The notes: generated from the sequence alone by a model not told the origin. Shown: positions 2,196-59,354, numbered from the stretch's first letter. The stretch is DNA of 64,000 nt from Clostridia bacterium (GCA_017631635.1 JAGBSX010000048.1:5626-69625); one strand, 5' to 3'. Program-made: numbers and translations.

Positions 2196-2510
2196 AGAGT
2201 CAGAGAATATAAAAGAAGTGGAAGTGGCAGAAAAATTATTTGCAACGTGTCTCGTCTGTACTTGTAAACTGTGTAGGGGAGACAAAGGATCAATAGTTGA
2301 TATAATCTGCCCACGTTGTAAAAATTTAATAGCAATTAGAATATAAAAGTATAGTTAAAACAACGCTATTAAAAAAGCGTAAAAAAAGTTTACCAAAGAA
2401 AAGAGTTCAAAACTTGCGAGTTTTGGCTCTTTTTTGGCAATAAAAACACTTTTTGTTCCACACATACAAAAATAAAAGAGTATCAAGTGATAGTCTTTTA
2501 TTTTTAGTTT

Positions 2511-2660
2511 GTGTCCTTGGACACAACACAGTTTGACTGAAGGTCAACACAGTTTCGAGCAAAGCGAAGAACACAGTTGTCCGTAGTCGGACACAAAACG
2601 AAGTTATGCTTATGCATAAACTGTGTGGGCATACGCCCAACGATGTTACCCTATCGGGTA
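2511..2660. repeat. hairpin-array element, divergent variant (E1)
   Basis: Seven mini-hairpins (GTGTC-CTTG-GACAC, TGAC-TGAAG-GTCA, GTCCG-TAGT-CGGAC, ATGC-TTAT-GCAT, GGGC-ATAC-GCCC, TACCC-TATC-GGGTA, one weaker). They are separated by ACACAGTT three times, then by its reverse complement AACTGTGT. Confidence 0.6.
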
Positions 2661-2667
2661 AAAGATA

Positions 2668-2696
2668 TTGACAAAAACATATAGACGATTTATAAT
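2668..2696 (+). promoter_or_regulatory. sigma-70-type promoter for the RNase gene
   Basis: TTGACA (2668-2673), 17-nt spacer, TATAAT (2691-2696). Confidence 0.55.
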
Positions 2697-2728
2697 GAAA
2701 GCGTGCTTATAAAATAGGGAAAGGATAG

Positions 2729-3319
2729 ATGAAAAGAATTATAGAGTTTTATGACAAGAGAAAAAACAAGTTTATATTTATTACGACTATAGTTCTAATA
2801 GTTTTGTTTATTATGCCGTTTGTTACTACTCGCAATATGGATATAAAAGAGGCGTATACAAAAAAAGAAGACGTGGCTTTATATATTATTCAACATCATC
2901 AACTTCCACCGAATTATATCACGAAGTATGGTATAGATTATGCTAAAAATCACGATATAGCGATAGATGATTGTATAATGGGTGGGGATACGCATTTCAA
3001 CACAGCGCAATTTGTTCAATTTGGCGTAAGTAAATCGACCAAGTTGAAAGAGTGCGATATAGCAGGGCCAAACTATGATATAACGGGCAAACGTGGTGCG
3101 CAAAGATTAGTATATACATGCAACACAAATGAAGTACGTGTGTTTTATACGTATAATCATTATAAAAGTTTTGAAGAAATATCATACTTTCATTTGCAAA
3201 TAACAAGTAATGTATTTTGGATTATTTTTGGCGTTTATACGGCAAGTTTGATTACTTTTTACATTGTGATAAACAAGGTGAAGAAAAACTTTGAGACGAA
3301 AGAAAACCAACGTGATTAG
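2729..3319 (+). CDS. barnase-like guanyl-specific ribonuclease with N- and C-terminal hydrophobic segments
   Basis: LPPNYITKYG matches barnase LPDNYITKSE. ECDI..GKRGAQRLVY..YTYNHYKSFEEI matches EADI..GFRNSDRILY..TTDHYQTFTKI, with the catalytic E, R, R and H conserved. TM-like stretches FIFITTIVLIVLFIMPF and VFWIIFGVYTASLITFYIV. Confidence 0.8.
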   Translation: MKRIIEFYDKRKNKFIFITTIVLIVLFIMPFVTTRNMDIKEAYTKKEDVALYIIQHHQLPPNYITKYGIDYAKNHDIAIDDCIMGGDTHFNTAQFVQFGVSKSTKLKECDIAGPNYDITGKRGAQRLVYTCNTNEVRVFYTYNHYKSFEEISYFHLQITSNVFWIIFGVYTASLITFYIVINKVKKNFETKENQRD

Positions 3320-3364
3320 ATACTTCAAATTGTCAAGCACGCTAGAGTGTATATCAGGTCAACG

Positions 3365-3397
3365 AAAAAAAAGACTTACATAGATGTAAGTCTTTTA
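3365..3397. terminator. bidirectional intrinsic terminator
   Basis: AAGACTTACA-TAGA-TGTAAGTCTT stem-loop flanked by an A-run and a T-run, between convergent genes. Confidence 0.7.
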
Positions 3398-3416
3398 ATT
3401 TTTGATAAGAATAGTG

Positions 3417-3701
3417 TTATTTTAGATTTTTAACAATTTGTAATAAAGCAATTTTATTTTCTTGCGAAAGAAGTCTGACCTTTCTAATAAGTTCGTCTTC
3501 TTCGTTGGCTTCTTTGAAGAAATCAGATAGGCTAATTCCAAATGCTTCACAAATTGCACGTAAAGTTGAAATTTTTGGCTCGGTTTTTCTTGAATATAAA
3601 TTATTAAGGGTTGATTGAGTTAAACCACTCTCCATGGCAAGATAGTTGATAGACCATCCTTTCTCTTTTCTTAAAATCTCTATTCTTTCTAACACTTCCA
3701 T
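3417..3701 (-). CDS. XRE-family HTH transcriptional regulator
   Basis: 94 aa. LRKEKGWSINYLAMESGLTQSTLNNL is a typical HTH_3 motif. Confidence 0.8.
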   Translation of the reverse strand: MEVLERIEILRKEKGWSINYLAMESGLTQSTLNNLYSRKTEPKISTLRAICEAFGISLSDFFKEANEEDELIRKVRLLSQENKIALLQIVKNLK

Positions 3702-3755
3702 TTTTCTATTTTACCTCTTTTGTTTTTATTATATAACTAAATTGAGTTAAAAACA

Positions 3756-3797
3756 TAACCCAAAACACTTGACAAATAAACCCAAACGGGTTAATAT
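3756..3797 (+). promoter_or_regulatory. promoter with candidate operator repeats in the divergent XRE/lipoprotein region
   Basis: TTGACA (3769-3774), 17 nt, TAATAT (3792-3797). Direct repeat TAACCCAAAAC / TAAACCCAAAC, and inverted repeat AACCC-aaac-GGGTT (3779-3792) inside the spacer. Confidence 0.4.
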
Positions 3798-3840
3798 ATA
3801 AACAAAAGTTATAGTCACTAAAAAACAAAGGAGAAAGGTT

Positions 3841-4527
3841 ATGAAAAAGGTAATGAGATCATTGATTGTAGTTCTATTGTTGTTTTCGATGCTAGTTTTT
3901 ACCGGCTGTAATTCTGAAATAAAGCCAACGGATGAGAACAGTTACTTGATTTCCGTTTATAGTGTTAAGAGAGAACAAAAAACAAATGGAGAAGTTGTTA
4001 ATACTGGTCTAGAACTTAAAAAAACAATTCAAGTGCTTAAGACACAATGTTTTGAACTAGATTATGAAGAAGTTAAACTAGTTGATTATGATGGTGACAC
4101 ATATGAGGCGCTTGGCAAATATGAGTATTCTAGTCTGCCAAGTCAAAGAAGTTATTTTGATAAAAAGATAGTAGTATTTCCGACTAGCGATGCGACAATT
4201 TTAGTAAGAGAACGCCAGAAGAAAAACATTAAAATATATTATGGCGGGGAAGAAGTTCTCAACAATTTGGGCGAAAGAGAAAAAGTAGAGTATAATAACT
4301 ATTTTAAAAACACGTACAATGAAAGCTTTAGTATTACAGGTACTAATGTCGACGCCATATTAAAAGGCGTAAAAAAGAATGTGACCATTGAGTTGTATAC
4401 TCATTCTTCCTGTGTTGGAGAACCCTTTGCCGAAGGCAGTTTTACTTATAGAAGTTATGGATTTTCGGGAAGTATAGATTTTGAGTTGATTCAATCAACT
4501 GACATATACGTGAAAGTAATACAATAG
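3841..4527 (+). CDS. hypothetical lipoprotein
   Basis: Signal peptide ending in the lipobox LVFTGC. GGAGAAAGG RBS. No recognisable domain. Confidence 0.6.
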   Translation: MKKVMRSLIVVLLLFSMLVFTGCNSEIKPTDENSYLISVYSVKREQKTNGEVVNTGLELKKTIQVLKTQCFELDYEEVKLVDYDGDTYEALGKYEYSSLPSQRSYFDKKIVVFPTSDATILVRERQKKNIKIYYGGEEVLNNLGEREKVEYNNYFKNTYNESFSITGTNVDAILKGVKKNVTIELYTHSSCVGEPFAEGSFTYRSYGFSGSIDFELIQSTDIYVKVIQ

Positions 4528-4903
4528 TTGTCAAATAGTAGAAAGAAATTTTCCATAAGAGGTTAAAAAACATTATAAAAGACTAACGAAATCCTCGTTA
4601 GTCTTTTTAATTTTTGCTTTGCAAAACATACAGATTTAGAGAGTGAATCTACAAACCATCAATTGTCACAGTCGAAAACAAGGTTTTTGAGGTGTATATG
4701 ATAAAAAATAAAAAAACAAGTGGGCTCAGTTGCATTGATATCCACTAAAAAAGTGGTATAATATTTATAATAAAATTGAGAGATAGCACACGTATACTAG
4801 CAACCGTGCATAAGTCTATCGTATCATAGCAAAAGGTGATTGAACGAAACGAAAAAAAGGGCAGTCCTCCACAAGGACGGCTAGAAGATAGAGGGGAGAA
4901 ATT

Positions 4904-5500
4904 ATGATAGATGATATAGTCATAGGACAATTGATAGATAGATATACCCAAGCACTAAATATTTGCCTAGAGAAGAGGATATATATAGAGGAGCACCGTG
5001 AGGATATAGATGCGCAACTTAGACTAGTAGTCGCCATAGGAGACTACCGCGATATAGAGAGAGAACTCATAGACACGATAGGTCTAGATGAGGCTCAAGA
5101 GGTGATACTAGAGTGCAAGCGAGAGGTCGTAGGGAGAGAGAGGAGTAGAGGTATAGTATTCTACTCTGAGGATGTGGAGAAACTAGAGAATATCCTCGCT
5201 ATCAAACACCTCACGATACCTACCTCACTACGCATAGATAGACAAGAAAATATGGATATGGAGGAGGTAGTGCTGTCTAATCATAGAGGGGAGAAGTATC
5301 ATTTTCGCACTTGGTCGGTACTACACCTAGACGGCGAGGTGTATATAGAACTAGAACTACTAGAAGATATGAGGGTGGGCAAGTTTAACTATTATCATAT
5401 ATCCAACTCCACTCTCAAAATGGTGCAGGACAACTCTCTCACGAGGAGACTAGACGAGAGGAGAGAAGTGGTAGAGGTGGCTTTGGGCAAAAATAGGTAG
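4904..5500 (+). CDS. hypothetical acidic protein
   Basis: 198-aa ORF with a GAGGGGAG RBS. No family recognised. Confidence 0.5.
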   Translation: MIDDIVIGQLIDRYTQALNICLEKRIYIEEHREDIDAQLRLVVAIGDYRDIERELIDTIGLDEAQEVILECKREVVGRERSRGIVFYSEDVEKLENILAIKHLTIPTSLRIDRQENMDMEEVVLSNHRGEKYHFRTWSVLHLDGEVYIELELLEDMRVGKFNYYHISNSTLKMVQDNSLTRRLDERREVVEVALGKNR

Positions 5501-5546
5501 TATAATCCTACAAATCTAGCACACACTAACTCCAAGGAGAAAGAAT

Positions 5547-5981
5547 ATGTACTTTGAAGAATTGACCCTAAATCAAGTGATAGATATACCACCTGTGACT
5601 ATCACCCAGGAGAACATGCTAGACTTCGCTAGCAAGTATGACAATATCCCTCTGCACACCGACGAAGAGTACGCCAAAAGCACGCATTTCGGAGGATTGA
5701 TAGCCCCTGGAGTGATGAGTTTTGTGAGTGTGTGGGCGAAGTATCTGGAGGTAGACCCTATAGGGAGAGAACTACTAGCAGGCAAGTCTACGCATATAGA
5801 GTGGTACAAGCCTGTGTACGCAGATGATATATTGAGAGGAGTAGCCACTATCACCGACCTAGTCAGTCGCAACGAAAAAAACGGAGTAGCCCAGATATCC
5901 ATAGAGGTACACAACCAACGAGGAGAACTAGTACTCACGAATATAACCGAGGCTGTGGTCAAGAAAAATATAAAAGAATAA
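5547..5981 (+). CDS. MaoC-like (hotdog fold) dehydratase
   Basis: 144 aa. PLHTDEEYAKSTHFGGLIAPGVM matches the MaoC dehydratase motif. Confidence 0.7.
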   Translation: MYFEELTLNQVIDIPPVTITQENMLDFASKYDNIPLHTDEEYAKSTHFGGLIAPGVMSFVSVWAKYLEVDPIGRELLAGKSTHIEWYKPVYADDILRGVATITDLVSRNEKNGVAQISIEVHNQRGELVLTNITEAVVKKNIKE

Positions 5982-6047
5982 GACACGCTAAACAAAATAA
6001 AAAACACACTATTATCTATGATAACGGTGTGTTTTTTGGTGTATTGT

Positions 6048-32433: not shown

Positions 32434-32610
32434 AAAAACACGTGTTATAACAAAACAATGTGTTTTTGATAACAAGCAACAACAAAAAACGGTCAAATGT
32501 CCAACGAAGAGGCATTTGACCGTTATTTTTAGTTAAAATTATTAACTACTTGTCGTTGTTAAAATTTGATATGCAAAGTGATTTGTTCATCTAACCTGCA
32601 CACTATATTT

Positions 32611-33342
32611 TTAGTCGGCATTAGTATATCCATTTTTTACTATTTCTGTAGAGAGTTCTTTGTACGTTCTGCTGAAAATTGTTTTTGATACTACAAATAT
32701 GGCAAGAAAAACAATATCTACAACTATAAAACCAGACAATCCTGAAAAATTTGCAAAATACGAAAGTTGTGGTAACGAAGAAGTAGCTTCAAACATTTTT
32801 AGGAAAAAAAAGTTGAAGACAATGGAAAAACAGAAATACATAATAGTAATGGTAATAGGGCGTTGACTTTGATATAGCTTCACATAATATTTATTATCAT
32901 TCTTTGATATTTGTGCGTATTCAATCATTGCATATTCTTCGGGGTTTTGCATACTACGTATACCATTGTAAATGCTTTTTCCACATTGTACAATAGAAGA
33001 AAAAGCAGTTAACACTGTTGAAAATGGTAAAATGCAAAATAAAAGGGCAACTCCTGCATCATTACCAGAACCGTTTAACGTTAATTGCAAACTGTCAATA
33101 AGACCGTCTACTATAGAAAAATTTTCAGCAAATACATACTGGCCGTTTTTAATATTTTCTTGTGTTAATTGACCTAGTAGGTTGAGTGGCAACTCTGATA
33201 AAGGAATACTTTTGGTCGTTTGCAAAACAGGTACGAATAATAAGACAAAAACCATAATTAATGAACATGCGCTCAAAATCAAGTTAAACAAATTTACTTT
33301 TTTAAATTTGTCAAGGTATTGTAAATAAGGTTTTGATTCCAT
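32611..33342 (-). CDS. hypothetical membrane protein (AT-rich island)
   Basis: 243 aa, about 5 hydrophobic helices. Codon usage differs from the flanking core genes. Confidence 0.5.
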   Translation of the reverse strand: MESKPYLQYLDKFKKVNLFNLILSACSLIMVFVLLFVPVLQTTKSIPLSELPLNLLGQLTQENIKNGQYVFAENFSIVDGLIDSLQLTLNGSGNDAGVALLFCILPFSTVLTAFSSIVQCGKSIYNGIRSMQNPEEYAMIEYAQISKNDNKYYVKLYQSQRPITITIMYFCFSIVFNFFFLKMFEATSSLPQLSYFANFSGLSGFIVVDIVFLAIFVVSKTIFSRTYKELSTEIVKNGYTNAD

Positions 33343-33457
33343 AAAACTTTCTCCTTTTGTAAAAACAATAAAATTAAGCTCAAATTAATGATATGATTAT
33401 ACAAGAAGTTTTCTTCTTTGTCAAGTATTTTAAGAAGTTTTATTCTATAATAAAAGT

Positions 33458-33667
33458 ATGACGGTTGGAGAAAAAATAAAAGAATTAAGGATTGATAAGG
33501 GTTGGTCTCAAGCACAACTGGGTAAAATGGTAAACGTTAGTCAAAAAGCAGTTGATTATTGGGAGCGAAACGTCAACGAGCCGAAAGCAAGTTATTTAAT
33601 TGCTCTTGTACATGTTTTTGGCTTGTCGTTTGATGATTTTTTTTATGATTTAAGTACGAAAGATTAA
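33458..33667 (+). CDS. XRE-family HTH regulator
   Basis: IKELRIDKGWSQAQLGKMVNVSQKAVDYWE is an HTH_3 motif. Confidence 0.8.
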   Translation: MTVGEKIKELRIDKGWSQAQLGKMVNVSQKAVDYWERNVNEPKASYLIALVHVFGLSFDDFFYDLSTKD

Positions 33668-33847
33668 ATAGCACGGAGTACCGTGCTTTTTTATTGAGGT
33701 TAAAGACAAGGGCTTTTTTAACCGTATTTAATAATCTTTTGATAAAGTTATTAAAAATTTTTTGACAATACTCAATAAAACGATTAATAAAAGTATGTAA
33801 CTAGTTAGTTACTTAGATATTTTTTTAATGTAGTCAAGTGAATATGA

Positions 33848-34420
33848 CTACATAGGAGGTTTATATGTGGACTGAACAAATGCTATGTATTCTTCTAAAC
33901 TTGTGATATAATTATTATACAAAGTCTCTTTTTTGAGTATGCTATGAAAACGCTCCATTGGAGAGTCGTCAATAGGCGTGCCTTTACGGCTCATGGAAAT
34001 GGTGATTCCATTAGCTTCACAGATGGCTTTGTATTCAAAGGACGTGTATTGAAACCCTTGGTCACTGTGAATGATTAGGTTTTTCACGTTTTTTTTTGCT
34101 ATTGCTTCGTTTAACGTATCCGTCACAAGAGAAATATTATTAAATTTCCCTATTCTATACGCAACAATTCTTCTATCATACAAATCTATTATTGTAGATA
34201 AATATGCTCGTTTCTCGTTGTGTATTAAATATGTTATGTCAGTCAACCAAACTTTGTTTGGAGCAGTAGAATTAAAATTACGTTTTATTAAATTAGGCTT
34301 AACGTTTTCTACTATTTGACGATATTTAGGTTTTGTTTTAATTCTCTTTACATATTCAGGTTTTAAGGCGTATTTTGCCATAATTCGTTGAACTTTTTTG
34401 TGATTAAATATGCGTGTCAC
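33848..34420 (-). mobile_element. IS3-family transposase OrfB fragment (5'-truncated, no OrfA)
   Basis: DDE core WLTDITYL...HSDQGFQYTS...PMERFHSILKKE. Only 190 aa, starts at a GTG with no RBS, and there is no upstream orfA or frameshift site. Confidence 0.75.
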
Positions 34421-34482
34421 TCATAGGGATTTTAATTGAATAATTTATAAAACTCGACTTGTGAAAAGTCGAGTTCTGTTTA

Positions 34483-34833
34483 TTATTTCTCTTTAAGTGT
34501 TTTGCACGAAGAAATTAACATTTTTCGTATTGCACCACAATCGTTATTTAGTTTTTTATATTGATTTTCTTCTAAATAGCCTGTTTCAAAAAGCAATTCC
34601 AACCAATATTCACTTTCAAAGCACTCTTTTAATGCTATATCAAGTTTTGAAATAAAATCAGCCGTTCCTTGAGCGTACTGCGCTTAGTGGATATTTGCAC
34701 CAATACTTGTTCCCGAACGCAATAGTTGATTAGTTAATACACTTTCTTTATTGTTGGCTTTAATTTCTCTTGTAATAAATACAATGTTTTTAGCAAACTC
34801 TTTTGCTTTTTCTCTTAAAATGCTTTCACGCAT
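34483..34833 (-). pseudogene. four-helix-bundle protein (TIGR02436 / 23S IVS protein / Avd-like) with an in-frame TAA
   Basis: My translation is MRESILREKAKEFAKNIVFITREIKANNKESVLTNQLLRSGTSIGANIH*AQYAQGTADFISKLDIALKECFESEYWLELLFETGYL... The stop at 34684-34686 sits where the family has GANI(A/H)EA. Confidence 0.65.
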
Positions 34834-34868
34834 ACAATAATTATAGCATAAATCAAGTTTTTAGTAAA

Positions 34869-35077
34869 GTGATATTGTTTGCATAGCAAACAGTTATATT
34901 TTTAGAGCAAGTCTAAAAGTTATATTTTGACCTGTGGTCAAAGTTATATTATATTTGCCACAACTCGCCGATAGGCGAATATCACTTTGCGTAGCAAAAT
35001 ATAACGCCGTAAGCATATAACTTGCCGAAAGGCAAATATAGTTGTGGCGTAGTGATAAATCCCTATCACTACGCCAC
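34869..35077 (-). repeat. hairpin-array element copy E2
   Basis: Core GTTATATTATATTTGCCACAAC at 34943-34964 (reverse complement of GTTGTGGCAAATATAATATAAC). 14-bp terminal hairpin GTGGCGTAGTGATA/TATCACTACGCCAC at 35044-35077. Mini-hairpins separated by AGTTATAT / AATATCAC / AATATAAC. Confidence 0.8.
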
Positions 35078-35125
35078 TAATCGTTAGTCCTATTTGATGA
35101 CAATTAAGTCGTGTCTACGTGTGGT

Positions 35126-36159: not shown

Positions 36160-37473
36160 TTATACGTCTAGGTCGTGTAGGCAGTCCCAACTCTCTCTCT
36201 TGACGGCTAGATAATGCTCATTACCTCTTAGCATCACTACAGGTGGCCTAGCCACTCGGTTGTAGTTGGACGCCATAGAGTAATTGTATGCGCCAGTCGT
36301 GAGACAGGCTACTATATCTCCTCTAGAGGTAGTAGAAGGCATATATACGTCTGGTTGTATGATATCTCCACTCTCGCAACATCTACCTACCACAGAGCAT
36401 AGCATATCTCTATCTTGGGTGAGTCTAGAGAGATTGAGTAGAGTATATCTAGAGGAATATAGCGCATAGCGAGGATTGTCCGTCATACCACCGTCTACGG
36501 ATACGTAATTCTTGTAGCCAGGTATGCGTTTGAGAGAGCCTACCGTGTATAGAGTAAGTCCACTATCTGCCACTATCGACCTGCCTGGCTCGAAGTATAT
36601 AGCAGGCATATCTATACCTAGGCTAGCCACTTTGTCTTTGATGAAGGTGGCTACCTTGAGGATATTTTGGCGAATATCAATGCTTGGGTCTAGGCTAGTG
36701 TACCTCACGCCGTATCCACCACCTAGGTCTAGTCTAGATATGGTGTAGGATAGAGTGTCTTTGACCTCTTTGATGAAGTCTAGCATCACTCCTGCCGTGG
36801 CGAGATACACCTCTGAGTCAAATACTTGCGAACCCACGTGACAATGATAGCCTATTAGGTTGATAGAGGGGAGTGTGAGTGCCAATGACGTGATAGCCAT
36901 GGCTTGTCCAGTCTCTATGGCGCTACCAAATTTGCTATCCACCTTGCCAGTAGCGACGGCAGAGTAGGTGTGAGGGTCTATACCTGGGGTAATGCGTAGA
37001 TATATATCTTGGACTCGTCCCATATCGCTAGCGATAGTGGATATGGCTCTGAGTTCGTCTTCGCTATCTACTGCTAGTACGCCTACGCCCATAGAGAGTG
37101 CGTAGCGAATATCCTCGTCAGTCTTGTTGTTGGAGTGATAGCAAGCCTTGCTCATATCAAATCCTGCCTTGACGGCTGTGGCTATCTCGCCAGGAGACAC
37201 CACGTCGATACCCATACCCATATCACTCATTATGCGATATATTTGCTTAAAGGAGCAGGCTTTGGATGCGTAGTACACCCCACCTTGAGTGCCAAAGGCC
37301 TCACGGACGGCATCTAGGTAGGTGCGACACCTATCTCTGATACGGTCCTCGTCCATCACGTATAGAGGAGTACCATAAATGCGAGCAAGCGCCATTACGT
37401 CGTGCTCGCCCATATATAGTCTACCGTCACGGATAGATAAATTTTGGCATATCAAATCATTGGTAATATTCAT
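36160..37473 (-). CDS. lysA: diaminopimelate decarboxylase
   Basis: YASKA (PLP Lys region), GGGYGV, and CESGD motifs. Confidence 0.9.
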   Translation of the reverse strand: MNITNDLICQNLSIRDGRLYMGEHDVMALARIYGTPLYVMDEDRIRDRCRTYLDAVREAFGTQGGVYYASKACSFKQIYRIMSDMGMGIDVVSPGEIATAVKAGFDMSKACYHSNNKTDEDIRYALSMGVGVLAVDSEDELRAISTIASDMGRVQDIYLRITPGIDPHTYSAVATGKVDSKFGSAIETGQAMAITSLALTLPSINLIGYHCHVGSQVFDSEVYLATAGVMLDFIKEVKDTLSYTISRLDLGGGYGVRYTSLDPSIDIRQNILKVATFIKDKVASLGIDMPAIYFEPGRSIVADSGLTLYTVGSLKRIPGYKNYVSVDGGMTDNPRYALYSSRYTLLNLSRLTQDRDMLCSVVGRCCESGDIIQPDVYMPSTTSRGDIVACLTTGAYNYSMASNYNRVARPPVVMLRGNEHYLAVKRESWDCLHDLDV

Positions 37474-37480
37474 AATATCC

Positions 37481-38461
37481 TCATAGCATACTTGCTATTA
37501 TTTGTTCTCTAGATAGAGGTGATAGGTCCACGGGGCGTACGTCGAATACCGTCACAGCACCTACCTCTCCTCTCATGTGCATATTGTACACAGCCCTACA
37601 AAAAGCCGTGATTACACTAGCAGTGAATTCGGGGTTTGAGTCTAGTTTGAGAGAATATTCTACTACGTGATTATTCGCTTTGTCTAGTCCCGTGCTACCA
37701 GTCCTGATGACAAATCCACCGTGTGGTATACCCTTGTGGTCTCTGTCTAGCACCTCTTGGGATACGAAATGCACCATAGTATCATAATCAGCGAAATAAT
37801 TGGGCATGGTGACTATCTCTCTCTCCACTCTAGCCTTGTCTACTCCATCTGCCACTACTACGTAGCACTCACGGATATGTTTGTCACGAGTGGTGAGGTC
37901 AGGGCATACGCCACTACGCACCTTGTCTAGAGCAGAGTCTACGGGGATAGTGTATTGTCTAGCATCTAGCACACCCTCTATTCGCCTGATAGCGTCGGAG
38001 TGACCTTGCGAAACTCCCTTGCCCCAAAAGGTATAATCTCTGCCATTTGGAAGTATAGCACTACCGTATAGTCTGGCTAGCGAAAACATACCTGGGTCCC
38101 AACCTGCCGATATGAGGGCGAGGTGGCGACTCTCTCTAGCCGTAGCATCTACGTTGGCTAGATGAGTAGGTATATTGGCGTGAGTGTCAAAACTGTCTAT
38201 GACGTTGAAATGTTTGGCTAGTTCGGGAGTCGTAGTAGGTAGGTCGGTAGCCGAGCCACCGCATAGTACCAATACGTCGATATCGTCACGGTAGAGAAGT
38301 ATATCGTCGCTAGAGTACACGGGCGCTCCCGTGAGGGTGGTGAGAGTAGAGGGGTCTCTACGAGTAAATACACCCACTAGCGTCATATCATCTGCATAGT
38401 TGACGGCACACTCTATACCTTTGCCTAGGTTGCCGTATCCGTATATCGCTACTCTTATCAT
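37481..38461 (-). CDS. ddh: meso-diaminopimelate D-dehydrogenase
   Basis: MIRVAIYGYGNLGKG...GWDPGMFS...WGKGVSQGHSDA are typical of Ddh. ATG 38461 follows GGAGG; the longer track ORF overlaps dapB. Confidence 0.85.
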   Translation of the reverse strand: MIRVAIYGYGNLGKGIECAVNYADDMTLVGVFTRRDPSTLTTLTGAPVYSSDDILLYRDDIDVLVLCGGSATDLPTTTPELAKHFNVIDSFDTHANIPTHLANVDATARESRHLALISAGWDPGMFSLARLYGSAILPNGRDYTFWGKGVSQGHSDAIRRIEGVLDARQYTIPVDSALDKVRSGVCPDLTTRDKHIRECYVVVADGVDKARVEREIVTMPNYFADYDTMVHFVSQEVLDRDHKGIPHGGFVIRTGSTGLDKANNHVVEYSLKLDSNPEFTASVITAFCRAVYNMHMRGEVGAVTVFDVRPVDLSPLSREQIIASML

Positions 38462-38469
38462 ATATCCTC

Positions 38470-39228
38470 CTAGTCTGCTAACAAGTCTTGCATATTGTAT
38501 ACACCAGCACTCTTGCCTACGATAAACTGGGCAGCACATATAGCCCCTTCTGCAAATAGAGACCTATCGTGAGCCTCGTGTTTGAGGGTGATGGTTTGAG
38601 CATTAGTACCTATGATGACTTCGTGCTCTCCTACTATATTGCCCATACGTATAGCGTGTATACCTATCTCGTCGTGAGTACGCTTGGCGTTGCCACTACG
38701 ACCTAGATTGAGGGTAGCATTTGGGCGAACTTCTTGGATACCACGTGCTATCATGAGGGCAGTACCAGATGGAGCGTCCACCTTGCGATTGTGGTGTTTC
38801 TCGACAATCTCTATCTCAGCATCAGGCATAGCGACGCTAGCCCTCTTGGCTAGTTCGACTAGTAGGGCTACACCCACCGACATATTTGCCGAATAAAATA
38901 TAGGTATCATCTCTCCTGCACGGTTGATGAGAACTTTCTCCTCTTCGCTATGTCCAGTAGTAGCGAGTACCACAGGGATATTGTGTCTAGTAGCGAAGTC
39001 TAGTAGTCCCTCGGTAGAGGAGTGATGCGAAAAGTCCACTATCACGTCCACTTGGGATAGAGATGATAGATCGTCAGCCTCCGTATAGCCTACTGCTAGG
39101 GGCACGTCGATAGTAGCAGGGGATATATCTATACCTCCCACGAGAGAGGAGTCTCTATATCCTTGGCGACATAGGTCTGCTACGATTTTGCCCATATGTC
39201 CGAGTATTCCATTGACTAATATATTCAT
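38470..39228 (-). CDS. dapB: 4-hydroxy-tetrahydrodipicolinate reductase
   Basis: GILGHMGK, E.HH..K.DAPSGTA motif. Confidence 0.9.
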   Translation of the reverse strand: MNILVNGILGHMGKIVADLCRQGYRDSSLVGGIDISPATIDVPLAVGYTEADDLSSLSQVDVIVDFSHHSSTEGLLDFATRHNIPVVLATTGHSEEEKVLINRAGEMIPIFYSANMSVGVALLVELAKRASVAMPDAEIEIVEKHHNRKVDAPSGTALMIARGIQEVRPNATLNLGRSGNAKRTHDEIGIHAIRMGNIVGEHEVIIGTNAQTITLKHEAHDRSLFAEGAICAAQFIVGKSAGVYNMQDLLAD

Positions 39229-40189: not shown

Positions 40190-40390
40190 CCATCTCATCA
40201 AAATATCGCCACTACGCGAGATAATTGAATCGATAGCCCTCCGCAAAATGCGACAACAAGACGGATATTCTCCGAATTGCCAGCCAAATATCCCTAAGCC
40301 GAGGATACCCACTTCGGCATTCGCCCCTCTCGTGGCAGGTCGGCTAACCCGTACACCCACGATATTGACTAAATGCGCCTCTATCAAATG
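40190..40390 (-). ncRNA. lysine riboswitch (L-box) leader of dapA-dapB-ddh-lysA
   Basis: On the minus strand: GATAGAGGCGC... GAGGGGCGAATGCCGAAGTGGG ...CTGGCA... TGTCGC..GCGGAGGGCTATC. These are the conserved L-box blocks, with a GATAG/CTATC P1. Promoter TTGACA (40427-40422), 17 nt, TATCAT (40404-40399). Confidence 0.7.
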
Positions 40391-40552
40391 ATAGATAGAT
40401 GATAGCATACCCAAATGGCTTTGTCAACATAAAATATGCCTATCTTCGCTAAAATATATAAAAAATCACGATTTTTTCAAAAAAAAGCCTTGCCCACTTG
40501 CTAGATATGTGTATAGTGTGGTATAGTGTATGAGTCGTTAGGAGGAGGAATT

Positions 40553-42013: not shown

Positions 42014-42129
42014 TCCGGTGACAATAGCGAAAGGGACCCACCTGTATCCATTCCGAACACAGTAGTTAAGCCTTTCAGCGCAGATGGTACTTGACTGGTA
42101 GCGGTCTGGGAGAGTATGACGTCGCCGGA
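42014..42129 (+). rRNA. rrf: 5S ribosomal RNA (stand-alone copy)
   Basis: 116 nt. Terminal helix TCCGGTGAC/GTCGCCGGA. Conserved CCGAACAC, GTTAAGC, CAGCGC.GATGGTA, GGGAGAGTA.GAC. Followed by T6. Confidence 0.9.
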
Positions 42130-42153
42130 TTTTTTATGCAAAAAAAGAGGGTA

Positions 42154-42473
42154 TTGTCGCTCTTCCCGTAGGGAACTAGCGACAACTAAATAAATCCTTA
42201 CGGATTTGTGATATTCGTCTAACGACGAGTGATATTGCCTGCGGCAGTGATATTTGCCTACGGCAAGTGATATTGCCTATCGGCAGTGATATTTGCCTAT
42301 CGGCAAGTTATATTGCTTACGCAGTTATATTTTGCTAACGCAAAGTTTTATTTTCCCTTTCGGGAAAGTTGTGGTAAATATAATATAACTTTGACCGAAA
42401 GTCAAAATATAACGCAAAATAGTTTTTCATATCACTTTTAGCCACAAGGCTAAAAATATCACTAATATGTTTC
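42154..42473 (+). repeat. hairpin-array element copy E3
   Basis: 5' hairpin TTGTCGCT..AGCGACAA, then TAAATAAATCC-ttac-GGATTT. Nine units of GT(G/T)ATATT plus hairpin. Core GTTGTGGTAAATATAATATAAC at 42368-42389. Then hairpins followed by AATATAAC / ATATCAC. Confidence 0.85.
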
Positions 42474-42534: not shown

Positions 42535-42611
<77 letters not shown>

Positions 42612-43680: not shown

Positions 43681-44066
43681 AGCCGAGTCCCTACGAGGGA
43701 TTCGGGGGCTAAATAAATCCGTAGACGGATTTGTGATATTCGTCTAACGACGAGTGATATTGCCTATCGGCAAGTTATATTGCCTATCGGCAAGTTATAT
43801 TGCCTATCGGCAGTGATATTTGCCTATCGGCAAGTTATATTGCCTATCGGCAGTTATATTTTGCTAACGCAAAGTTTTATTTTCCCTTTCGGGAAAGTTG
43901 TGGTAAATATAATATAACTGCGACTGTAAGTCGCAATATAGTGCAAAACTTATGTGCATATCACTTTTAGCCACAAGGCTAAAAATATCACTTATCAAAC
44001 TTAATCTTTTGTGGATAAGAAAAGCCCACCATATTTCGCATATAAGCGAAGTATAGTGGGCTACAC
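43681..44066 (+). repeat. hairpin-array element copy E4 (longest)
   Basis: 5' hairpin CCGAGTCCC/GGGATTCGG, then TAAATAAATCC..GGATTT. Tandem units at 43754-43896 (five carry TGCC-TATC-GGCA). Core at 43897-43918. 3' hairpins with ATATCAC spacers. Long 3' hairpin AGCCCACCATATTTCGC..GCGAAGTATAGTGGGCT at 44023-44062. Confidence 0.85.
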
Positions 44067-44131: not shown

Positions 44132-44896
44132 TTAGGCTAGGCGTAGCACCGTCAAGGTGGCAGAGCCTAGGGTGATAGTACTGTCAGATGTGTTGTATAT
44201 AGACAGAAAGTCTCCTGCGGTGAGTGAGAGGAGGATGGTACGAGATACAGCCTCAGTCTCTGCAGAGGTGTTGACTGACAAAGTTTCGTTTGGCACAAGC
44301 ACACCGTTTCTATACAGCGACACCGATAGGTCGCTACCACCTGCCTCAGGAGTACCTGATAGTGAGTATGATACTAGATATACTCCACTCTCTGTGATGA
44401 ATACGCTACTACCCGTGACAATCATAGTACTGCCCACAGTTTGCTCAACTTGCGCGATAGGCAGTACAGTATCGGTAGCAATCGTACCTGCGTACACTCC
44501 TGCATATATAGCGTCGTTTGTACCTGCAGGGCCTTGAGGGCCTACAGGACCAGTCGCACCTGTAGCGCCGGTCGGACCTACAGGACCTATTGCACCAGTC
44601 GCACCAGTTGGGCCTTGTGGACCTACCGGACCTACAGGACCTACAGGGCCAGTCGCACCAGTTGCACCCGTCTCTCCCTGAGGGCCTGCTGGACCTACTG
44701 GACCTCTAGGACCTCGAGGACCTATTGCACCAGTCGCACCAGTCGCACCTGTAGCACCAGTCGGACCTATAGGACCTTGTGGTCCCATAGCACCCATAGG
44801 GCCCTGAGGACCTTGTGGACCTACAGGACCTCTCGGTCCACGAAGATACACGTAGTTTGGTTGACAAGTATTGTCACATCTATTAAATAAGCACAT
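44132..44896 (-). CDS. collagen-like triple-helix repeat protein with a BclA-type C-terminal domain
   Basis: 35 uninterrupted G-X-Y triplets ([14 protein letters not shown]...GPQGPAG) by my count. A ~125-aa beta-rich C-terminal domain follows, resembling the BclA/C1q-like exosporium domain. Confidence 0.8.
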
Positions 44897-56675: not shown

Positions 56676-57048
56676 CCGAGTCCTATTAGGGACTCGGCAA
56701 CTAAATAAATCCTTACGGATTTGTGATATTGCATCGCAGTGTTGCCGAGCAACTTTAGTTGCGAACGCCAACTGCTTTAGCAGTTATATTGCCTATCGGC
56801 AGTTATATTTGCCTACGGCAAGTTAAGGATTTATTTAATATAACTTTGGCGATAGCCAAAATATAACTTTTAGACTTGTCTAAAAATATAACTGTTTGCA
56901 CAGCAAACAATATCACTTTACTTAAAAATCATATGCTTTGCAAAGCAAAAAGAAAAGGATAGCAAAAAATTTTGCTATCCTTTTATATTCCTAAAAAATC
57001 CCTAAGGGCGATGCCCTTAGCCGAATCCCTTGTAGGGACTCGGCTAGG
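56675..57048 (+). repeat. hairpin-array element copy E5
   Basis: Starts at the vanW stop codon. Bounded by near-identical hairpins GCCGAGTCC..GGACTCGGC (56676-56699) and GCCGAATCCC..GGGACTCGGC (57020-57044). Has GTGATATT/GTTATATT then AATATAAC/AATATCAC spacers. Central AAGGATTTATTTA replaces the usual core. Confidence 0.8.
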
Positions 57049-59067: not shown

Positions 59068-59303
59068 GTGTAGCCCACTATACTTCGCAAAAAGCGAAAT
59101 ATGGTGGGCTTTGCTTATCCACAGAATAGTTAAATAATTTAGTTATATTTTATCCTATGGTTAAAGTTATATTATATTTGCCACAACTTTCCCGAAAGGG
59201 AAAATAAAACTTTGCATAGCAAAATATCACTGCTTTTAGCAATATAACTTGCCGTTAGGCAAATATAGTTGTGGCGTAGCAATAATCCCTATCGCTACGC
59301 CAC
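59068..59303 (-). repeat. hairpin-array element copy E6
   Basis: Core at 59166-59187 (reverse complement orientation). Terminal hairpin GTGGCGTAGC..GCTACGCCAC at 59271-59303. Long hairpin AGCCCAC..GTGGGCT at 59072-59110, homologous to E4 44023-44062. Confidence 0.8.
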
Positions 59304-59354
59304 TAAGAAACGCTTTTTTCATTTTGTTTGTTTTGTTTGACTATCTAGTAGTGC

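Follow-up and report, generated by a model that had tools for sequence, protein, structure and literature searches.

A solitary array of word-spaced mini-hairpins with the architecture of Gut-1 arrays before a ribonuclease gene in a Clostridia genome

Human gut metagenomes were the only source of the Gut-1 RNA motif (Rfam RF01706) when it was first reported in 2010 (Weinberg et al. 2010, PMC2864571). Its authors classed it as certainly RNA and as not cis-regulatory, and they put forward no function for it. We found no literature on Gut-1 later than that description. Its seed sequences share one layout, in which a stop codon or tRNA is followed by a predicted terminator hairpin, modules of a direct linker and a hairpin, a centre that ends in AAUAUAAUAUCAC, and modules carrying the inverted linker. 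The seed linkers read GUGAAAU, GUGAUAU or GUUAUAU.

Clusters of small palindromes are also known from proteobacteria as REP/BIME elements and REPINs, which are mobilised by RAYT transposases and may protect mRNA 3' ends or attenuate transcription. Streptococcus pneumoniae has BOX elements, which belong with other modular, MITE-like repeats, and type III toxin-antitoxin (ToxI-type) loci place a short repeat array directly before a ribonuclease gene. Hairpins less than 15 nt apart past a transcription unit have been described as well; they need no U tail, clusters of seven are rare, and closely spaced clusters after stop codons are argued to act as termination units (Gupta and Pal 2021, PMC8355165).

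Here, we analyzed a 64,000-nt stretch of DNA (the window; GCA_017631635.1, JAGBSX010000048.1:5626-69625) from an uncultured Clostridia bacterium from ruminant gut, which holds five Gut-1-type arrays and, before a ribonuclease gene, one array of mini-hairpins with another linker word, termed E1. The abundant form of this repeat class in this genome is Gut-1. Tentatively, and with a confidence that stays somewhat short of even, we regard E1 as a solitary, word-divergent member or analogue of terminator-adjacent mini-hairpin repeats, either insulating or 3'-protecting, or else selfish.

Gut-1 arrays of the window

The GTTATATT/GTGATATT arrays of the window correspond to the Rfam Gut-1 motif, within which the linker word varies: the Rfam consensus is GUGAAAU, and this genome has GUGAUAU and GUUAUAU. 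The arrays are as follows.

34860-35090: M1, Gut-1-type array
42190-42470, + strand: M2, best Gut-1 (RF01706) match, directly after an orphan 5S rRNA
43712-43990: M3, Gut-1-type array
56700-56930: M4, Gut-1-type array
59140-59310: M5, Gut-1-type array

M2 scores 65.2 bits against the Gut-1 model at 42206-42278 (gathering score 50), and M3 and other segments of the window give sub-threshold Gut-1 scores of 32-43 bits. The main difference between M2 and M3 is how many TTGCC(tatc)GGCAA modules each contains. With start and polarity judged by the orientation of the centre motif, all five arrays begin 15-50 nt past a gene or rRNA whose transcription runs toward them; for the three that lie between convergent genes, 140-150 nt separate the far side from the second gene. 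The same polarity is seen in the two Gut-1 seed sequences shown with flanks and in a true Gut-1-type array (L201 1400-1560, IMG/VR 3300018495_002688), which lies on a 4.2-kb contig of viral classification, begins 11 nt past a stop codon and carries GTGATATT four times direct, then AATATAAC and AATATCAC. Both orientations of the M arrays occur in one replichore, cumulative GC skew rising steadily across the window, and array polarity therefore follows transcription and not replication. The sense strand folds somewhat better, with G-U pairs, in four of the five.

The surroundings of these arrays hold further features. The orphan 5S rRNA gene (42014-42130, 93.8 bits) is followed by M2 and then by a tRNA on the opposite strand (42538-42611); the window contains neither a 16S nor a 23S gene. 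M1 is abutted by a second low-GC island (about 30%, 32500-34850), which contains a truncated rve integrase-core ORF (33848-34420, - strand) and an XRE-type ORF (33458-33667), and two broken ORFs at 34483-34833 (- strand) resemble, by eye, a four-helix-bundle protein of the 23S rRNA intervening-sequence type. Convergent with the gene upstream of M3 is the gene of a collagen-repeat protein (44132-44896, - strand), possibly of exosporium type, that weakly matches the C-terminal domain of BclA, below threshold (37.4 bits, cut-off 38). A lysine riboswitch (40226-40391, - strand, 68.8 bits) precedes - strand genes that include those for diaminopimelate dehydrogenase (37481-38539) and a PLP-dependent decarboxylase of the Orn/DAP/Arg family (36160-37473).

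Composition of E1 and its parallel with Gut-1

E1 comprises seven perfect mini-hairpins at 2509-2661, with stems of 4-7 bp and loops of 4-7 nt, and a linker word, (A)ACACAGTT, in three direct copies and one inverted copy. Exact copies of ACACAGTT on the + strand start at 2526, 2547 and 2571, the inverted one at 2619; the true repeat unit is the 9-mer AACACAGTT, at 2525-2533, 2546-2554 and 2570-2578.

2399-2435, + strand: hairpin T1, terminator-like, AAAAGAG..CAAAAC / GTTTTG..CTCTTTT and then a T run, as read from the sequence
2468-2505, + strand: hairpin T2, AT-rich, 18-nt arms 94% complementary, T run at its end
2509-2593, + strand: direct-word arm, hairpins 1-4 joined by AACACAGTT
2509-2526: hairpin 1, TTGTGTC(cttg)GACACAA, followed by linker cacagt
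2533-2547: hairpin 2, TTGAC(tgaag)GTCAA, followed by linker cacagt
2554-2568: hairpin 3, TTCG(agcaaag)CGAA, followed by linker gaacacagt
2578-2593: hairpin 4, TGTCCG(tagt)CGGACA, followed by linker caaaacgaag
2594-2639, + strand: inverted-word arm, a 10-nt linker, hairpin 5, AACTGTGT (2619-2626) and hairpin 6
2604-2619: hairpin 5, TTATGC(ttat)GCATAA, followed by linker actgtg
2626-2639: hairpin 6, TGGGC(atac)GCCCA, followed by linker acgatg
2646-2661: hairpin 7, TTACCC(tatc)GGGTAA, last in the array

An earlier note on this DNA had described seven mini-hairpins spaced by the word. The seven hairpins and the three direct and one inverted copies stand, but only four of the six linkers hold the word, caaaacgaag and acgatg being without it. 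The 8-mer ACACAGTT occurs seven times in the window against 2.27 expected, a count that 0 of 100 shuffles reached, and four of the seven copies fall within 101 nt. Clusters of at least six hairpins appeared in none of 20 block shuffles of the window, and folding z-scores of E1 against shuffles are -4.1 (RNA, + strand), -4.4 (RNA, - strand) and -5.5 (DNA). These results confirm that the hairpin-plus-word array is real and far beyond chance. Full E1 RNA folds equally well on both strands, and so nothing marks E1 as RNA rather than DNA; in the core, the sense strand folds better (-39.5 vs. -36.2 kcal/mol). An alternative pairing joins TTTGTGTCC (2508-2516) to GGACACAAA (2589-2597). An extra inverted word copy, AACTGTGT, lies 240 nt upstream of E1 at 2267-2274, inside a 55-codon zinc-ribbon-like ORF (2179-2346) missing from public gene calls.

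The note had also likened the direct-then-inverted build of E1 to that of the main family, and this is borne out: E1 has linkers, layout and T..A stem feet in common with the GTTATATT arrays. Like Gut-1, with its tandem mini-hairpins of 3-5 nt loops and constant linker of 6-8 nt, E1 has short linkers (6-7 nt), and its words are spaced by 21-24 nt, compared with 17-26 nt in M1-M5. A long hairpin opens the array (2468-2505), as in M1 and M5, direct-word modules come first and inverted-word modules second, and the whole follows a hairpin at a transcription-unit end. The Gut-1 sequence of end-of-unit hairpin, direct modules, centre and inverted modules is found in E1 as T2, three direct words and one inverted word, in a segment of about 164 nt in which a long AT-rich hairpin leads to three direct-word modules, then a centre and a single inverted-word module.

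The feet of the stems extend this likeness. T..A closes the stem in seven of seven E1 hairpins and TT..AA in five of seven, against 0.31 and 0.075 among the 1081 other hairpins of the window (p = 2.5e-4 and 4.4e-5, respectively). The stems of M1-M5 show the same T(T)..(A)A bias, a regularity found here and lying outside Rfam's definition of Gut-1, and the T..A foot is the opposite of the A-stem-T pattern of terminators. That so specific a foot is common to E1 and M1-M5 points to the same process making or constraining both, and is the main reason to think that E1 may be a product of the process behind the Gut-1 arrays and not a chance look-alike. The architectural parallel itself is real and statistically supported.

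The words are a different matter. As the note had stated, the E1 word is unrelated to that of the main family (CACAGT vs. GUGAWAU, no Gut-1 match). The Gut-1 covariance model gave no match in 2300-2800 even at E <= 10, and at a permissive threshold Rfam as a whole returned only noise there, mostly eukaryotic miRNA and snoRNA models together with a few unrelated bacterial RNA families. When at least three hairpins with GUGAAAU/GUGAUAU linkers are looked for, E1 offers the hairpins but the linker CACAGU. E1 thus differs from Gut-1 in its linker, CACAGT(T) instead of GUGAWAU/GUUAUAU, in lacking the ..AAUAUAAUAUMAC centre, in being a single copy where Gut-1 has five copies in the window, and in lying farther from the upstream gene and upstream of a promoter. 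Because the linker is unrelated and the Gut-1 centre absent, E1 and Gut-1 need not be homologous and may be convergent. A loose resemblance to the Gut-1 word GTGATATT is seen in ACGATGTT and AAGATATT, the sequences on either side of hairpin 7.

Relatives of E1 were sought at several scales. The note had suggested looking for more E1-type copies in this genome; E1 is a single copy in about 76 kb, with no second one in the rest of the window, in 2.3 kb upstream or in 10 kb downstream of the same species, and a local BLAST search with E1 yielded none either in the window or in any of the loci compared. Related arrays in other genomes and metagenomes, for which the note had likewise suggested a search, did not turn up among the matches listed, and E1 is so far unique. 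Three direct words gave at least 119 matches in GTDB genomes, nearly all of those listed being plain tandem repeats with identical spacers, and two direct words plus one inverted word gave 61 matches in JGI metagenomes and IMG/VR, with 0 hairpin arrays. The JGI negative is weak, since that collection does not hold E1's own locus; close relatives of this rumen organism are probably absent from JGI sampling. Two 9-mers brought up nothing E1-like in IMG/VR, where the analogous scan with the Gut-1 word, serving as positive control, recovered the true array of L201. BLAST of E1 against plasmids returned only an AT-rich 40-nt chance match and against phages nothing; M3 (43700-44000) likewise had no match among plasmids. 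Two Parabacteroides loci were considered as relatives and rejected as a different thing: L032 (7396-7583) and L099 (4900-5010) carry the near-palindrome ACACAGTTGTGT at an exact 22-bp period, several times direct and then several times inverted, and look like iterons or protein-binding arrays. They share an 8-mer with E1 because that 8-mer was the search query.

Nor does E1 coincide with the other systems. With REP/BIME elements and REPINs it has in common an intergenic cluster of small palindromes, mostly at gene 3' ends in those elements, and a short conserved motif beside each hairpin. REP elements are many copies of one conserved imperfect palindrome of about 35 nt, in alternating orientation and with a conserved tetranucleotide alongside, whereas the hairpins of E1 differ and the linker is constant; looking for copies gave seven different stems and no second E1 in the window plus 10 kb, and a Y1 (RAYT) transposase gene was not seen among the window proteins scanned. 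The combination of fixed end modules and a variable internal count (M2 vs. M3) recalls BOX, as do the intergenic position, strong folding and non-coding nature, but BOX modules are 45-59 nt long and conserved in sequence, those of E1 21-24 nt with variable stems, and no terminal inverted repeats were seen on E1. Several hairpins less than 15 nt apart without a U tail also liken E1 to the hairpin-cluster terminators (PMC8355165), which have neither a repeated linker word nor a direct/inverted symmetry. A CRISPR array was rejected. In such arrays, direct repeats measure about 21-48 nt and alternate with unique spacers of comparable length, whereas E1 has a 9-nt repeat, one copy of it inverted, and self-complementary spacers of 12-15 nt. 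Intrinsic termination by the E1 hairpins was rejected as well on account of their T..A feet and missing T tail; as for T2, its T run follows a stem that is AT-rich instead of GC-rich.

The three direct words of E1 agree at 27 of 27 positions. No sequence is common to the three spacers that separate and follow them, and yet all of these still pair. Words so constant beside hairpins dissimilar yet pairing suggest that something acts on the words and on the pairing separately, each being maintained. A local origin unrelated to Gut-1 would instead have a word-plus-palindrome unit duplicated in tandem, without function and with a convergent likeness to Gut-1; palindromes would drift fast and stay self-complementary via intrastrand template switching (quasi-palindrome correction). 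The single copy without relatives in the scans and without an Rfam match fits this. It would, however, demand an extreme difference in rate between identical words and their dissimilar neighbours, tandem duplication yields no inverted copy of the word, and E1 is too close to the M arrays in its T..A foot and linker length; we consider a purely local origin unlikely.

The ribonuclease cassette and the origin of E1

Downstream of E1 lies a barnase-type ribonuclease gene, the cargo of a mobile low-GC cassette.

2442-2467, + strand: left anchor of the cassette, AAAAACACTTTTTGTTCCACACATAC, the leftmost block kept in the relatives L126, L131 and L133
2468-2631, + strand: window-specific segment of 164 nt, with T2, hairpins 1-5 and the 5' arm of hairpin 6
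2632-2700, + strand: promoter block, common to the window and L126, holding hairpin 7
2729-3319, + strand: barnase-type ribonuclease gene (Pfam PF00545, 28.3 bits, cut-off 24)

The predicted protein has 196 aa with hydrophobic N- and C-terminal stretches and is probably exported. Homologues, compared together with their flanking DNA, occur in different genomic contexts, and the genes upstream of the cassette are unrelated in every relative; it is these changing neighbourhoods that identify the cassette as mobile. No direct repeats were found flanking the low-GC island. The note had assigned an odd composition to the segment 1-4800, but the low-GC part is actually at about 2200-4900 (31-34% GC), and positions 1-2000 have 42-45% GC and ordinary, syntenic metabolic genes.

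The left block has the consensus AAAAAC.CTTTTTGT.CCACAC(AC)ATAC among the cassettes, and E1 is positioned about 25 nt inside this left end. The block shared with L126 reads TACGCCCAACGATGT.ACCCTATCGGG.AAAAGATATTGACA...TATAAT and contains a sigma-70-type promoter matching at 12 of 12 positions (TTGACA at 2668-2673, 17 nt, TATAAT at 2691-2696), which serves the ribonuclease gene; E1 is directly upstream of it. L126 (78% protein identity) keeps both flanks and the same promoter, with 20 unrelated nt in place of 2468-2631. L131 (92% identity) and L133 (81%) keep the left block and have a different promoter. The CACAGT array occurs in 0 of 8 related cassette loci, these three included, and T2, the first part of the window-specific segment, is absent from the same three; T1 is not common to the cassette relatives. 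Within the species, contigs L001, L003 and L004 carry an identical E1 and agree across all 383 nt before the gene (eight species contigs are on record, L002 beginning only 183 nt upstream, inside the array). The ribonuclease promoter region is a mosaic, with two promoter types between the same outer anchors.

This comparison qualifies the place of hairpins 6 and 7, which the note had counted as parts of the array. Hairpin 7 belongs to the shared promoter block, where the L126 version is not kept as a hairpin (TCACCC/GGGCAA, two non-compensating changes). Hairpin 6 straddles the junction, being insert end plus flank with its 3' arm in the shared flank, so that at least one of the seven hairpins is partly fortuitous, a point in favour of a local origin. 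The same origin gains from the related genome L134, which shows that palindrome-specific rearrangement occurs in this clade: the loop of its hairpin CCGTTCCGC(ata/tat)GCGGAACGG is flipped (ATA/TAT) between 95%-identical copies of an unrelated multi-hairpin repeat. These copies (605-758 and 2687-2840) are 154-nt direct repeats that flank the ribonuclease cassette of L134, each with a terminator and five back-to-back GC-rich hairpins without a linker word.

Since related cassette loci are without E1 and L126 keeps both flanks, E1 entered or arose after the cassettes diverged. That E1 is ancestral to the cassette is ruled out by L126, L131, L133 and five other cassette loci; the pattern indicates a lineage-specific indel outside the conserved content of the cassette. 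The note's idea of horizontal acquisition holds for the cassette, which is mobile, but E1 did not demonstrably arrive with it (0 of 8 loci). Its further proposal, that E1 is an imported version from another lineage, is not supported: cassette relatives are without the array, and the array GC of 44.7% is host-like (host backbone 44%, island 32%), the latter being weak evidence on origin because stems need G+C. E1 more likely arose or inserted in this host lineage than came with the island. CATAC is found at both junctions (2463-2467 and 2630-2634), a hint of a 5-bp target duplication that would imply an empty site ...CCACACATACGCCCAACG...; it is only a hint, as no empty site was found, L126 having 20 other nt there. 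Terminal inverted repeats were not seen on E1.

A position just inside the leftmost conserved block raises the possibility that the words are binding sites of a transposase or recombinase near the left end of the cassette, comparable to the ends of Tn7 or Mu or to attP arm sites. The mixture of direct copies with an inverted copy and the CATAC repeated at both junctions would suit such subterminal repeats. Cassettes with the same left anchor (L126, L131, L133) do without E1, however, the other side of the island has no matching array or inverted end, and 2200-4900 contains no transposase or recombinase gene, leaving this the most improbable of the readings considered here.

A double-stranded DNA operator was also weighed, in which a regulator such as the XRE-family HTH protein encoded at 3417-3701 binds the 8-9-mer words, acts on the promoter at 2668-2696 and controls a toxic ribonuclease. 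SinR-type proteins use direct and inverted 7-mers. In E1 the words lie upstream of the -35 element with centre-to-centre spacings of 21, 24 and 48 bp, an HTH_3/HTH_19 gene is in the same island, and array and HTH gene occur together in the window and are both missing from L124, L128 and L134, the relatives with visible downstream genes. The spacing is not constant in helical turns, though, and 2628-6000 has 0 word copies (at most one mismatch), so none is near the promoter of the HTH gene or over that of the ribonuclease. In L126 the promoter block works as a unit without the array, and seven self-complementary spacers with T..A feet are left unexplained; an operator is quite unlikely.

The short array before a ribonuclease gene likewise recalls type III toxin-antitoxin loci. 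ToxI units are identical and about 36 nt long (34-40), whereas only 9 nt repeat in E1, and ToxI has its promoter upstream and a terminator before the toxin, whereas in E1 the promoter lies between array and gene. An antitoxin RNA was rejected on these grounds: only a 9-mer repeats, a 12/12 promoter separates array and gene, and the enzyme is barnase-type.

Possible action of E1 and its meaning for Gut-1

E1 lies between the upstream terminator-like hairpins and the consensus promoter of the cassette, starting 163 nt past the nearest upstream ORF and behind the two hairpins T1 and T2. A consensus terminator scan called neither of these and no + strand terminator in 2150-2800, and the promoter and terminator scan found no promoter-like site before E1 on either strand and no terminator after it. 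E1 may hardly be transcribed at all. The action that we favor, that of a terminator-adjacent mini-hairpin repeat, would be that of a structured single-stranded nucleic acid like the Gut-1 arrays, most likely RNA from read-through; array polarity and the better folding of the sense strand favor RNA made by read-through from upstream. Such an RNA would form stable hairpins in a row, none with a U tail, and between them the linker word would be the conserved part, either single-stranded or engaged in long-range pairing; the word can pair with the inverted copies. Most plausibly, E1 would halt or buffer transcription that runs into the ribonuclease gene, or obstruct 3' exonucleases; within the same model, E1 could alternatively be a selfish repeat growing beside existing hairpins.

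Gut-1 was first classed as a free-standing non-coding RNA, and E1 could by analogy be a small RNA in its own right, which might, for instance, serve as a sponge for a protein that binds the single-stranded word between the hairpins. Its repeated single-stranded motifs between stable hairpins have the layout of protein-titrating RNAs. The scans that yielded neither a promoter before E1 nor a terminator after it speak against this, pairing with the inverted word would mask a direct word, and E1 is a single copy without conservation; we regard such an RNA as very unlikely.

The broadest proposal, in which a single, unrecognised kind of non-autonomous element has E1 and the Gut-1 arrays as two of its specificity classes, is highly improbable in our estimate. 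The element would home to hairpins at transcription-unit ends and add word-plus-hairpin modules, each word being read by its own sequence-specific partner, a protein or guide nucleic acid. If true, one genome could host several word classes, and words would diversify between lineages. No candidate gene for a word partner was seen among the window proteins scanned, and E1 alone cannot carry the conclusion of a partner, as it is a single copy without relatives.

Taken by itself, E1 is a modest curiosity, a one-off insertion before a ribonuclease gene, and not evidence for a new system; in annotation it can be treated as a harmless non-coding insertion before a mobile ribonuclease gene. For Gut-1, an orphan motif since 2010 that was known only from gut metagenomes, the window places five arrays in a Clostridia genome and gives them a clear layout and polarity relative to the adjoining gene end. 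E1 adds that, within one genome, arrays of this construction can carry an entirely different linker word. Should further word classes exist, the part that stays constant within these arrays would be a changeable recognition site, which would point to a dedicated partner and offer a handle on the action of Gut-1.
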